From NCBI GenBank assembly GCA_022571295.1, contig JACZYA010000003.1:1-56529 (forward strand): a stretch of 56,529 nt of DNA, read 5' to 3'. This document shows positions 13,208 to 50,306 of the stretch, one piece after another (the stretch's first letter is position 1; every line of letters starts with the position of its first letter). The notes beneath the pieces are model-generated. The model saw only the letters and a list, made by a program, of their open reading frames with translations. It had not been told where the DNA came from and made no database searches. Both the position numbers and the translations under genes were made by a program. Origin of the DNA: Acidobacteriota bacterium. GTDB taxonomy: Bacteria; Acidobacteriota; Terriglobia; Acidiferrales; 2-02-FULL-67-57.

Positions 13208-13561
13208 ATGACGCCCCGCACCCGCAACCCGAACGTTGGCACCTCTTCCCAACAGGTTTCTCGAGACGCCCTGGGCATGATTGAAACGCGCGGGCTGGTA
13301 GCTTCGATTGAGGCTGCGGACGCTATGGTCAAAGCAGCGAACGTGGCGATCCTCGGGCAGACCTTCATCGGGGCCGGCTACGTTACGGTCATGGTGCGCG
13401 GGGACGTGGGCTCGGTCAAGGCGGCCACCGATGCCGGTGCAGCGGCGGCCCGGCGCGTGGGTGAGTTGGTCAGCGTGCATGTGATCCCTCGGCCCCACCC
13501 CGAAGTGGAAAGCATTCTCCCCAGTGGCGGCAAGATTCCGCCCGGGCAGGCATCATGGTAG
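13208..13561 (+). CDS. Bacterial microcompartment hexameric shell protein (BMC-H; EutM/PduA/CcmK-like)
   Basis: [26 protein letters not shown]...[20 protein letters not shown]...HVIPRPH. Confidence 0.95.
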
Positions 13562-33514: not shown

Positions 33515-33657
33515 GGGTAGTGGGACATTTTGGAAATGGAAACTTACGCTGAGCCCTGTGGCACCTGCCACGGGGCGCTTGTGCCGCTTGTCCGCCCGGC
33601 GGCAGGTGCCGCCGGGCTCAGCGGTAAAATTAACATTGTGAAACTGACCCACTACCC
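33515..33657. ncRNA. Rod-shaped hairpin with AT-rich central bubble (6S-RNA-like architecture)
   Basis: GGGTAGTGGG/CCCACTACCC, GCTGAGCCC/GGGCTCAGC and GGCACCTGCC/GGCAGGTGCC are nested perfect stems around a ~20-nt internal bubble. Confidence 0.4.
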
Positions 33658-33983
33658 AGCCAGGGCGAGTCTTGCGCGCTGTCAGCCCGTGTGCTACTTT
33701 CACACGTTTGGACTGCGCTGGTTTTGCTCATGATTCTTCCCATCAACGGCTGCGAGCCGCGAATTGCATCCACGGCCTTCCCCGGCGACGCGGGCGCGGA
33801 GGTCGTCCGTTGATGCGCCTCGAACTACGTGGATTGCAAGGGGCCCTATCTTGCGTTGACCCGTGCGGTTCACCGCCAGCATTCGCGGCCAGCGGTTTCG
33901 TCCGAAACGGAGGCCAAGCGATAGCGTCCCGCCGCTTGTGGTGAGCTTGCCGAACCGCTTCCAAGCCGTCAAAGGCACCCGCG

Positions 33984-34016
33984 CCTGTCCTGAGCCCCGC
34001 GAAGCGGGCCGAGGGA
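33984..34016 (+). repeat. 33-nt hairpin mini-element E1
   Basis: CCTGTCCTGAGC-CCCGCGAAGCGGG-CCGAGGGA inserted in the codon G^AC. Confidence 0.8.
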
Positions 34017-34031
34017 ACATCCTCCCGCCCG

Positions 34032-34103
34032 CTTGTCCCGAGCTTGCCCTGCTTGTCCCGAGCAACGTCGAGGGGAGCGTCAGCGAAGGGCGAATGCGAG
34101 GTA
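34032..34103 (+). repeat. Three nested 24-nt hairpin mini-elements E2[E3[E4]]
   Basis: E4=34052-34075 CTTGTCCCGAGCAACGTCGAGGGG; E3=CTTGCCCTG+AGCGTCAGCGAAGGG; E2=CTTGTCCCGAG+CGAATGCGAGGTA. Confidence 0.8.
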
Positions 34104-34125
34104 ACTCCAGCTTCCGGAGCCAGGC

Positions 34126-35700
34126 ATGACGCATCGTTTCCAAGCTGTTAAAGGCACTCGCGATATTCTGCCGCCAGAATCGGCTTTATGGAACCGGGTC
34201 GAGCAAACCGCCCGCCGCGTCTTCGCCACCTACAATTTCCAGGAGATCCGCCTGCCTATCCTGGAGCAAAGATACCTTTTCGAGCGCTCCTTGGGTTATG
34301 AGTCCGACATTGTTTCGAAGCAGATGTTTACACTTGAGGACCGGGAGTCCAGTGAGCTTTGGGTTTGGCGTGACCTCGTCAGCGACTGGAAACTTAGAAT
34401 CGATGATCCCCTTGCACTGGACCAGTTCGAGTACGCCCTCAAACGGTTATTGCAGTGCCTTGAAGTCGAGCTTCAAAGAGAAGAAAAAATCTTGAGGCCT
34501 GAGATACTTCAGAGTGCCCGCGATGCACTATTGCATAATGCCGAAAAGCTACGGGAGCTCCGCGAGAAAGGGATAACACCCCAAGGCCTAGAGGTTCTTA
34601 TCGAGACGATACAGCTGGAGGCAGCCACTGTTAGGGGGGAAGACCTGGGTTTGCGCCCGGAAGCCACCGCGTCCGTCGTCCGCGCTTACATCCAGCACGG
34701 CCTGCACACGAGGCCCGGCCTTACGAAGCTTTACTATATCGGCCCGATGTTCCGCCGCGAGCGGCCGCAGAAGGGCCGCTACCGACAGTTTTACCAAGTC
34801 GGCGCCGAGGTGTTGGGCTCCTCGGACCACCCGGCTCTCGACGCCGAAGTCATCGAAATGCTGCTGGTTTTTCTCGATCGCTGCGGTCTGCGCGAGCATA
34901 CGCTTTACGTCAATTCCATCGGCTGCTCAGACTGTCGTCCGAAATACGTCGAAAGACTCCGGAGCGAATTGCAAAAAGTAAAAGACCATCTGGGTGCCGA
35001 CAGCCGCCGCCGGATTGAAACCAACCCGCTGCGCGTCCTGGACTCGAAACTTCCAGAGGAACAACCGATAATCGAAAAGCTTCCCTCCATTCTTGACCAC
35101 CTCTGCGACGCCTGCCGAGACCATTTCCAAAAGTTTCAGCAGGAGCTAAAGGATCGCAGCCTAGCGTACGAAATTAACAAACGGTTGGTACGGGGGCTGG
35201 ACTACTACATCCGCACCACTTTTGAGGTCACCGCGCCCGGCTTGGGCGCGCAGAACGCCATCTGCGGCGGCGGGCGCTACGATGGGTTGGTTGAACTGCT
35301 TGGCGGCCCTCCCACCAAGGGCATGGGATTCGCCCTGGGCACCGATCGCCTCTTGCTGGCGCTGCGGCAGGTGGAGGAGTCCGGCGGGAAAGATCAGTTG
35401 GATGTCTTTATGGTCTGGCTGGGAGCGTCGGCGTTGCGGGCCGCGCGCATGTTGGCGCGGCGGCTGCGCGAGCAAGGCATCAGCACGGAGCTTCTCTACG
35501 AAGAAACGAAATTGAAAAAGGCCCTCGGGTTGGCCGACAAGAGCAGCGCCCGCTACGCCGTCCTGATTGGCGAAGATGAGCTGGCGCAGAACAAATTCAC
35601 ATTGCGCGACATGCGCTCCGGCCAGCAGCGCGCGTTGTCGGAATCCGAGCTTCTGCAGGAATTGGCCGCGAGTGCGGGGGCTTCGGCTGCCGAGGAGTAG
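34126..35700 (+). CDS. hisS: Histidyl-tRNA synthetase with ~95-aa insertion
   Basis: KGTRD, LRPEATAS, GPMFRRERPQKGRYRQFYQ, LVRGLDYY, GGGRYDG, anticodon-binding domain. Confidence 0.96.
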   Translation: MTHRFQAVKGTRDILPPESALWNRVEQTARRVFATYNFQEIRLPILEQRYLFERSLGYESDIVSKQMFTLEDRESSELWVWRDLVSDWKLRIDDPLALDQFEYALKRLLQCLEVELQREEKILRPEILQSARDALLHNAEKLRELREKGITPQGLEVLIETIQLEAATVRGEDLGLRPEATASVVRAYIQHGLHTRPGLTKLYYIGPMFRRERPQKGRYRQFYQVGAEVLGSSDHPALDAEVIEMLLVFLDRCGLREHTLYVNSIGCSDCRPKYVERLRSELQKVKDHLGADSRRRIETNPLRVLDSKLPEEQPIIEKLPSILDHLCDACRDHFQKFQQELKDRSLAYEINKRLVRGLDYYIRTTFEVTAPGLGAQNAICGGGRYDGLVELLGGPPTKGMGFALGTDRLLLALRQVEESGGKDQLDVFMVWLGASALRAARMLARRLREQGISTELLYEETKLKKALGLADKSSARYAVLIGEDELAQNKFTLRDMRSGQQRALSESELLQELAASAGASAAEE

Positions 35701-49745: not shown

Positions 49746-49832
49746 GCGGAAGTGGCGGAACTGGTATACGCGCAGGACTTAGAATCCTGTGGCCGCAAGG
49801 CCGTGTGGGTTCGACTCCCACCTTCCGCACCA
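49746..49832 (+). tRNA. tRNA-Leu (anticodon TAG)
   Basis: GCGGAAG/CTTCCGC acceptor stem, CAGGA-CTTAGAA-TCCTG anticodon arm, long variable arm GGCC-GCAA-GGCC, GGTTCGACTCC T-arm, encoded ACCA. Confidence 0.97.
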
Positions 49833-49855
49833 AAATTTCCGTAGGAAATTTTGCC

Positions 49856-50182
49856 CTGAGCGAGCGCAGCGAGTCGAAGGGCCATCTTCCTCCCGGTTGG
49901 TGTTGTTATCTTTTGCTTTGCGCTGATCGCAGTTACTACTGCGGAATTACCAGCAATCTTGGCCAGCGTCTTCGGGACCACGCCTCCGGCAGGGGTTCCG
50001 GCTACACCAAGGGTATCAAGCCCGTTGCATTACTCTGGTACGAATGTCACGAGGATCGCTCCTCTGCCGCCAGGCGGGAACGACAATTGAAGAAGTGGAG
50101 CCACGCCAAGAAAAAAGCGCTAGTGGAAGGATGCTTACGGTTTAAGAGTGCGAATACTCGTTTGTGGCTTTCCCTCGACTAG
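49856..50182 (+). CDS. GIY-YIG nuclease (YhbQ/YazA, UPF0213-like); start codon uncertain
   Basis: CYLLLCADRSYYCGITSNLGQRLRDHASGRGSGYTK...ARRERQLKKWSHAKK. No in-frame ATG; CTG 49856 and GTG 49805 (inside the tRNA) are the nearest options. Confidence 0.8.
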   Translation: MSERSESKGHLPPGWCCYLLLCADRSYYCGITSNLGQRLRDHASGRGSGYTKGIKPVALLWYECHEDRSSAARRERQLKKWSHAKKKALVEGCLRFKSANTRLWLSLD

Positions 50183-50194
50183 GCTCGGGACAAG
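50171..50194 (-). repeat. 24-nt mini-element E6, inverted, supplying the GIY-YIG stop codon
   Basis: Minus strand CTTGTCCCGAGCCTAGTCGAGGGA, 20/24 identical to E4 at 34052-34075. Confidence 0.8.
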
Positions 50195-50306
50195 CTCCTC
50201 CCACCTTCCGCACCAAAATCTCCGCAGGAGATTTTGCCCTGAGCGAGCGCAGCGAGTCGAAGGGCCTCCTACGGGCGACGGGGTTAGGTTCCTGCTGCGT
50301 TCATTG

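Follow-up and report, generated by a model that had tools for sequence, protein, structure and literature searches.

The hisS gene of an Acidobacteriota bacterium is preceded by short sequence units that lie inside one another, and this raises the question of what these units are and how they came to be nested. Within the window, by which we mean the whole analysed stretch of 56,529 nucleotides, positions 34032-34103 of the plus strand form a 72-nucleotide nest. Parsed letter by letter, it divides into exactly three 24-mers, each within another: an outer unit (34032-34042 plus 34091-34103), a middle unit (34043-34051 plus 34076-34090) and an inner unit (34052-34075), all on the plus strand. 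This is the division that a preliminary description of the sequence had proposed, unit for unit. The same description recognised a 33-nucleotide variant at 33984..34016 on the plus strand, and we agree with it: the head CCTGTCCTGAGC and the tail CCGAGGGA are as in the 24-mer, and a 13-nucleotide apical hairpin, CCCGCGAAGCGGG, replaces 4 nucleotides.

Removal of the four units, three nested and one of 33 nucleotides, restores the codons R-D-I-L-P-P-D-S in frame, as had been read there, but these codons do not belong to the functional gene. They are part of a duplicated hisS 5' stub that spans 33956-34128 and amounts to ~50 nucleotides when the insertions are left out. The stub begins with the codons R-F-Q-A-V-K-G-T-R and the first base of D (33956..33983), continues with (D)-I-L-P-P-(D) between the two insertion sites (34017..34031), and ends with S-S-F-R-S-Q-A and a stop codon (34104..34128), whose TGA overlaps the hisS ATG; all three pieces are on the plus strand. 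The intact histidyl-tRNA synthetase gene (34126..35700, plus strand) has its own complete N-terminus, MTHRFQAVKGTRDILPPES. The stub is non-functional, and the nested units are outside the working hisS gene. When the stub is compared with the 5' end of the live gene (33956-34128 versus 34126-34185), the differences are almost all in synonymous third positions, so the stub appears to be left over from a hisS allele that was older or foreign, and not to be a recent duplication. Its codons are also richer in G+C than the live hisS 5' codons. This pattern suggests that the present hisS 5' region may have replaced an older allele, whose first ~20 codons stayed behind.

In translated comparison with named loci, the best matches of the source genome are at ~76%, to Acidobacteriaceae, Acidiferrales and Terriglobales MAGs, and a Dormiibacterota MAG reaches 75%. 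We compared 20 hisS loci among relatives, two of which come from unpublished genomes (G023 and G027). The stub is present in two of them, the source genome (G000) and G001, which is the sole other genome of the genus; 17 loci have a single N-terminus, and one is without a 5' end. G001 carries this stub, the 33-nucleotide unit and the three-deep nest with a few substitutions, and the nest upstream of hisS is therefore old. Environmental contigs from four runs in four studies all retain the nest (4/4). Two of these, X1 and X6, are without the 48 nucleotides that correspond to 33992..34039 on the plus strand, and two others, X2 and X4, bridge this segment as in the window. The gap is a deletion between the direct heads of the 33-nucleotide variant and the outer 24-mer. 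No RNA run was listed among those with matching sequence.

Other features of this locus may be recorded here. Residues 78-172 of HisS (34357-34641) form a helical insert of ~95 residues after motif 1. The insert is missing in G001, whose HisS is 92% identical elsewhere, and in many relatives, and it is found at ~60% identity in some more distant ones; the hisS gene of the source genome looks mosaic. The leader upstream of the stub (33863-33955) has ~4 differences in ~130 nucleotides between G000 and G001, is conserved better than the coding sequence in this comparison, and matches no Rfam family. Rfam searches of the whole window at the gathering threshold matched the tRNA alone, and a permissive search of 33850-34200 returned chance-level matches only.

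The units at hisS are members of a dispersed family. The source genome (3.24 Mb in 287 contigs, 61.6% G+C) was scanned with the pattern C[CT]TG[CT]CC[CT]GAGC-N4-[CT]CGA[AG]GGN, with up to two substitutions and stepwise excision of inner copies. This genome-wide search, which the preliminary description had called for, yields 130 copies, compared with 2 in a shuffled genome. While 101 of the copies are visible directly, the other 29 appear after excision, which reaches a fourth level. The head, C-[CT]-T-G, has C at position 1 in 117/130 copies, T at position 3 in 126/130 and G at position 4 in 119/130.

Conserved covariation argues for a folded element. Positions 8 and 21 are C-G in 53 of the 130 copies, T-A in 63, T-G in 10 and other combinations in 4. 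The Watson-Crick fraction of this pair is 0.89, whereas 2000 permutations gave 0.49, with 0.63 as the highest value; for pair 5:24 the fraction is 0.45 observed and 0.40 permuted, and covariation is not seen. Positions 12-16 read C-G-N-A-G with position 14 free, and the apex is predicted to be a GNA triloop closed by C-G. G9-A10 is opposite G19-A20, and these nucleotides would form a tandem G-A bubble. Nearest-neighbour fold energies, both for single units and for the nest, are not better than those of shuffled sequences, so it is the covariation that argues for the hairpin.

The preliminary description had also proposed that every unit lies 3' of a G and has a length divisible by three. Both statements hold for the four insertions at hisS (4/4 in each case), but they become tendencies in the genome as a whole. 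G precedes 112 of the 130 copies. Under a strict pattern, lengths are 24 nucleotides (71 copies), 23 (7 copies), 32 (2 copies, both within the window) and 33 (1 copy). Because lengths of 23 and 32 nucleotides exist, preservation of the reading frame simply follows from the most frequent length. In five of the six frames, which are almost always open, stops are present in 0, 8, 3, 1 and 11 of the 130 copies, and the sixth has a stop in 81 of them. With a common length of 8 codons and five of six frames without stops, copies survive in protein linkers.

Insertion of the unit into itself, as read at hisS, recurs elsewhere in the genome. There are 33 copies inside another copy, all in the orientation of the host (33/33) and none inverted. 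Of these insertions, 25 follow host position 9, three follow position 11, four follow position 20, and one is at the end; the junctions 9-10 and 20-21 are the two sides of the G-A bubble. Nests are as deep as four units, and the inner and outer units of a nest are different sub-variants.

Many other copies reside in the loops of larger hairpin repeats. REP family A, GAGCCCCGTGG^CACCTGCCACGGGG, where the caret marks the insertion site, has 58 empty and 13 filled matches to a strict pattern. An empty hairpin of this family, GAGCCCTGTGG^CACCTGCCACGGGG, is present in the window at 33551..33575 (plus strand), with the caret at the position that holds a 24-mer in other copies. Paralogous empty copies occur in seven host hairpin families (family A and six more), and the target bases are not duplicated. 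A perfect flanking stem of at least 6 bp is present at 28% of 102 non-self targets versus 1.5% of 20,000 random sites, a contrast in which paralogy inflates the first figure. Filled copies within a REP family may partly go back to one insertion that was amplified with its REP, so the host-loop statistics do not count independent events. Two targets are T-loops of duplicated tRNA 3' fragments that adjoin an intact tRNA.

These host hairpins are genuine REPs. The source genome encodes six Y1 transposases, five of which pass the NCBIfam RAYT cut-off. Family E brackets one RAYT gene as inverted repeats (G000:C23:5178-5720) and family A another (G000:C256:1035-1739), and GTAG-headed hairpins surround two more (G000:C38:11782-12696 and G000:C95:3957-4583). 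At least three REP-RAYT systems therefore exist in this genome alongside the GIY-YIG hairpins described below. The 24-mer brackets none of the six Y1 transposase loci, where other REP families are found.

A second mini-hairpin family was also noticed. It consists of a 19-nucleotide palindrome, CCTGCCTGCGGCAGGCAGG, that is within a REP-C hairpin in G000 (C38 ~13530-13550, L209) and exactly absent in G001. The palindrome is also in the loop of a GTCAT-type hairpin (G000:C226 near 12235).

Copies of the 24-mer also interrupt genes. The 130 copies form 97 clusters, most of which are in short open frames that are intergenic. Six clusters are in frame within Pfam-verified genes: one in the linker between the two lumazine-binding domains of riboflavin synthase (RibE), one in the epoxyqueuosine reductase QueG, one in a DinB protein, two in a terminase large subunit, and one in a protein with two HTH domains. 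In-frame insertion into genes, which had been deduced from the hisS stub, is therefore a property of real genes at other loci, where peptide inserts are found in RibE and other proteins. The RibE linker is empty in seven relatives (G005, G009, G006, G012, G015, G003 and G019). It holds tandem copies on the non-coding strand in G000 (three) and G001 (four), and an independent single copy on the coding strand in G010.

Orthologous empty sites were also found between the two closest genomes. Across a syntenic 19 kb, where G000 and G001 are ~87-95% identical, one of the four G000 copies is common to G001, and G001 has four others. For two of the G000 copies, both 23 nucleotides long, G001 has exact empty sites; one of the two is in the loop of GGCGGGGTT/AACCCCGCC, and its ends are unambiguous, without duplication. 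Paralogous and orthologous empty sites are thus both exact, in agreement with the earlier reading that the units insert without target duplication. The presence-absence differences between G000 and G001 mean that the family moved after these two species split. Recent activity, another suggestion of the preliminary description, accordingly holds for these other loci but not for the old nest upstream of hisS. The genome-wide copies, the covariation, the precise empty sites and the in-frame copies in Pfam-verified genes together support the proposal of a mobile family of ultra-short, tagged, imperfect hairpins.

Every one of the 14 other genomes in the taxonomic family has between 5 and 109 matches to the exact pattern, genomes of the sister family have 0 to 7, and a reversed-pattern control has none in any of them; two unpublished genomes, G007 and G023, are counted in these tallies. 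When each species was represented by one genome, a scan detected at least 120 loci in many phyla, assigned by record titles. The listed loci include many in Acidobacteriaceae, and others in Chloroflexota, Nitrospirae, Verrucomicrobiota, Planctomycetes, Bacteroidota, cyanobacteria, Patescibacteria and Proteobacteria. We estimate that the match numbers alone are near chance in so large a collection. Among the matches listed, positions 8 and 21 form a Watson-Crick pair in 131/133, and positions 13-16 read G-N-A-G in 87/133. Scans of single genomes found 28 copies in a Dehalococcoidia, 15 in Nodularia, 5 in Nostoc, and 10 and 2 in two others, with 0 in the control. Both the sequence and its covariation are conserved in many phyla.

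A GIY-YIG cassette is found ~16 kb downstream of the nest. Its target is a tRNA-Leu gene with anticodon TAG (49746..49832, plus strand). This is followed by a 32-nucleotide variant hairpin, TTTGCCCTGAGC-GAGCGCAGCGAG-TCGAAGGG (49850..49881, plus strand), which is the upstream bracket of a small single-domain GIY-YIG nuclease gene of ~97 codons (49889..50182, plus strand; PF01541, 73.4 bits). A 24-mer in inverted orientation, CTTGTCCCGAGCCTAGTCGAGGGA (50171..50194, minus strand), is the downstream bracket. Beyond it are a displaced copy of the resident tRNA-Leu 3' end (50195..50215, plus strand) and a second copy of the 32-nucleotide variant (50233..50264, plus strand), a resident sequence that the cassette has duplicated. 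The downstream 24-mer is identical to the inner copy of the nest at 20/24 positions, just as the preliminary description had counted. The stop codon of the GIY-YIG gene is within this 24-mer, whose head lies directly against the displaced half of the tRNA T-loop, as it does in a simple T-loop insertion elsewhere in G000. The same tRNA in G001 is accompanied by one 32-nucleotide hairpin, which matches the downstream repeat of G000, and the cassette is absent. The cassette was therefore inserted into the T-loop region in G000. The GIY-YIG frame contains no ATG, GTG or TTG before the catalytic Tyr codon (49889-49915), and upstream the frame stays open across the hairpin and the tRNA; the start codon may be unusual, or the window's copy of the gene may be decaying. 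Among solved structures, the nearest to its product is the UPF0213 protein BH0048 (E 3.7e-11).

Hairpins of the 24-mer superfamily bracket small GIY-YIG genes in inverted orientation. We scored brackets on the plus strand up to ~80 nucleotides before the gene and on the minus strand at its 3' end. Among 22 homologues in family f1 (at least 40% identity), 12 have both brackets, 5 have one and 5 have neither; without the unpublished G007, both brackets are present in 10 of 20. Homologues at G011:C247 and G015:C54 align along the entire protein. Judging from the motif density in G000, both would occur by chance at ~5e-5 per locus. Of the 18 homologues in the phylum that are outside family f1, inspection by eye showed such hairpins near only 2, and a GIY-YIG gene was found within the 8 kb examined at 1 of 120 listed loci in other phyla. 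This type of GIY-YIG gene is present in 12 of 15 genomes with at least 10 copies of the 24-mer versus 4 of 16 with fewer, the genomes being related and not independent. The three copy-rich genomes with no such gene at E 1e-15 have completeness of 59%, 69% and 90%.

In G000, a sister hairpin with a GTCAT head, GTCATCCYGAGCG-NAG-CGARGGATC, brackets three more GIY-YIG genes, two of which sit in duplicated pieces of tRNA-Ser. Small GIY-YIG genes at G000:C58:1493-1693 (L174) and C140:35193-35390 (L175) adjoin tRNA-Ser genes. The duplicated piece starts in the T-loop at C58 and corresponds to the 5' part of the tRNA at C140. In G011, a genome of another genus, a GTCAT-type hairpin in the hisS leader (L140 1215-1265) has a CTTG-type 24-mer inserted after its position 9, which indicates that both hairpin types accept one another as targets.

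The preliminary description had likened the units to GTAG-tagged REPs. The combination of a tag with an imperfect stem is indeed common to both, but a nearer analogue is provided by hairpins that bracket small, Ssn-like GIY-YIG nuclease genes. In the Ssn family, a small GIY-YIG protein binds a single-stranded, oriented hairpin, termed NTS or SRM, and cleaves the DNA a few bases away on the 5' side (Chenal et al. 2025, PMC11893778). As a hypothesis, the authors likened NTS-ssnA-NTS to an insertion sequence; what the portion of that report considered here demonstrates is cleavage and an effect on transformation, not mobility (PMC11893778). A role proposed for the Neisseria NTS is to mark self DNA for a single-strand nuclease that acts against incoming DNA. 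Our family resembles the NTS/dRS3-type motifs of Ssn in having an oriented hairpin of 20-50 nucleotides with many dispersed copies and a wide spread across phyla, and it resembles the Ssn system in placing hairpins on both sides of a single-domain GIY-YIG gene of ~95 residues (PMC11893778). Unlike the Ssn motifs, it has a CYTG head (GTCAT with a G-A bubble in the sister type) and a stem with a tandem G-A bubble. None of 101 24-mers and none of 45 GTCAT-type hairpins fits the degenerate sequence published for SRM searches, which is not enriched in G000 either (22 matches versus 37 in a shuffled genome). The window's GIY-YIG protein is nearest to UPF0213 proteins among solved structures, is assigned by Pfam to GIY-YIG only, and is likened to Ssn by its architecture. 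Precise empty sites, nests and in-frame genic copies go beyond the Ssn report, and the strand-specific self-insertion (33 to 0) is consistent with one-strand cleavage of the Ssn type. Our search of the literature from 2024 onward for SsnA, GIY-YIG and hairpin found nothing on mobility.

Other repeat families have partly similar properties. GTAG-tagged REP elements with RAYT transposases were reportedly described by Nunvar in 2010. REP/RAYT systems carry GTAG and CGTC tags, and ORFs and other small palindromes serve some families as insertion sites (Di Nocera et al. 2013, PMC3733652). The 24-mers are like them in their tetranucleotide tag, imperfect palindrome and high copy number, with a single-strand hairpin logic that we assume. 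In contrast to REP/RAYT systems, their tag is neither GTAG nor CGTC, they bracket no RAYT gene, and REPs serve as their targets. The SDR repeats of Nostocaceae (Elhai et al. 2008) are said to be mobile-looking repeats of 21-27 nucleotides, some of them nested within their own copies. Judged against this description, the dispersed units of 23-24 nucleotides, the 33 self-insertions and the nests up to four deep make the 24-mer family SDR-like. SDR are reported as confined to Nostocaceae (PMC5861425). The 24-mer family is in contrast found in many phyla, including Nodularia (15 exact-pattern copies) and Nostoc (5), a comparison that concerns distribution. Palindromic elements of Rickettsia provide another parallel, of which the classic RPE-1 is several times longer than the 24-mer. 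These elements are found in frame inside genes that stay functional, and RPE-4 and RPE-6 are CGTC-tagged (PMC3733652). The likeness is in-frame palindromic insertion; the part of PMC3733652 that covers these elements does not report nesting. Among the papers searched, we found none with the sequence variants or peptides of our unit. Thus, insertion of REPs into palindromes and ORFs and in-frame insertion in Rickettsia are already described for other repeats (PMC3733652). What is new here is the particular tag and fold, the breadth of phyla, bubble-specific self-insertion, the targeting of REP loops and T-loops, clean empty sites, and the association with a GIY-YIG cassette of UPF0213-like type, which a search with the published motif would not detect.

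The best explanation of these observations as a whole, and one that we believe and doubt in about equal measure, would be a non-autonomous mini-hairpin of single-stranded DNA that a GIY-YIG nuclease recognises and cuts. The unit is 23-24 nucleotides long and consists of the 4-nucleotide head CYTG and a 20-nucleotide imperfect hairpin, in which a YCCY/RGGR stem is followed by an unpaired bubble (G-A/G-A), a short stem of GC pairs and the GNA triloop. The unit moves as one defined strand, most likely as single-stranded DNA, a form that we infer, and enters unpaired spots of other hairpins without target duplication, usually 3' of a G. Such spots are REP loops, the T-loops of tRNA fragments and the G-A bubble of its own copies, and insertion into the bubble produces Russian-doll nests. 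By analogy with the Ssn single-strand nucleases, the GIY-YIG protein would recognise the hairpin and cut beside it; we infer this role because the same hairpins bracket GIY-YIG genes and because the cassette itself is in a tRNA T-loop. Rejoining could be performed by host ligase, by replication across the site or by a RAYT. GIY-YIG nucleases hydrolyse DNA without a covalent intermediate, and a GIY-YIG protein alone therefore does not explain precise, duplication-free insertion. Since joining has no known basis in GIY-YIG chemistry, a RAYT-driven route stays the main rival.

Under that rival, the units would be REP-type hairpins moved by a resident RAYT, which is an HUH tyrosine transposase, and the GIY-YIG association would be a side effect of the use of the same hairpin loops. 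RAYTs act on single-stranded hairpins and can cut and rejoin through a covalent intermediate, a chemistry that better fits the 4-nucleotide head with an imperfect hairpin, the preferred 5' base, the strand specificity and the lack of target duplication. Five RAYTs in G000 pass the NCBIfam cut-off, and RAYTs are present in 30 of 31 relatives, so widely that their presence is uninformative. However, none in G000 is bracketed by the 24-mer, each having its own REP family; RAYT presence does not track copy number, as in G028 with 8 RAYT matches and 0 copies; the tag is CYTG and not GTAG; and no RAYT was found in 870 kb around the 120 listed loci in other phyla. We consider movement by a RAYT unlikely. 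It is also conceivable, though we give it little credence, that no dedicated enzyme is involved and that copies arise by slippage, template switching and gene conversion, in which case REP-loop insertions would be conversions between paralogous REPs. Direct repeats do rearrange, as seen in RibE with three copies in G000 versus four in tandem in G001 and in the 48-nucleotide deletion between two heads in environmental populations, and filled and empty REP copies have common flanks able to guide conversion. Yet copies are found without donor homology at unique sites, namely QueG, DinB, the terminase and the RibE linker, where copies in different genera occupy both strands, and in unique intergenic hairpins; moreover, the inner and outer units of nests come from different sub-variants, and sequence and covariation are preserved over many phyla. 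That slippage and conversion remodel copies is clear, but they cannot account for the placement of units at unique sites.

The preferred reading of a mini-hairpin cut by a GIY-YIG nuclease can also be set against a role for the unit as a selected functional motif and not a selfish one, for example as a nuclease self-mark, as a binding site for a protein, or as an element of RNA stability or termination; mobility would be compatible with this. The Neisseria NTS-Ssn pair modulates natural transformation (PMC11893778), and conservation with covariation across phyla and the mostly intergenic positions of the 24-mers would suit such a role. Copies in coding linkers, dead gene stubs and tRNA fragments look parasitic instead, as do nests to four deep and the high turnover between sister species, and no Rfam family matches. 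A selected function as the chief explanation therefore seems to us quite improbable.

The mobility and the mobile unit of Ssn-linked hairpin repeats were left open in what their 2025 description covers on this point (PMC11893778). Because unit ends, a target rule and clean empty sites are defined for the 24-mers, a test of cleavage and mobility is feasible with a handful of oligonucleotides. The target rule consists of the unpaired spots of hairpins, on one strand only, and new pairs of hairpin and nuclease could be useful as single-strand DNA tools.

For the genomes that carry it, the family gives rise to spurious ORFs, interrupts metagenome assemblies at repeats and causes small deletions and expansions, and it writes recurrent 8-residue peptides (LVLSEAEG, PFDFAQDK, PSTSSGQA and similar) into real enzymes. 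A broader and more tentative idea, possible but in our view rather less than probable, is that GIY-YIG single-strand nucleases head an unrecognised class of transposable elements, whose 24-nucleotide non-autonomous derivative would be among the smallest mobile DNAs. If this is true, the ends of such elements would be single oriented hairpins, and integration would be strand-specific, into unpaired nucleotides of REP loops, tRNA T-loops and the G-A bubble of the element itself. The class would have spread over many bacterial phyla, seeding 8-residue peptides in proteins.
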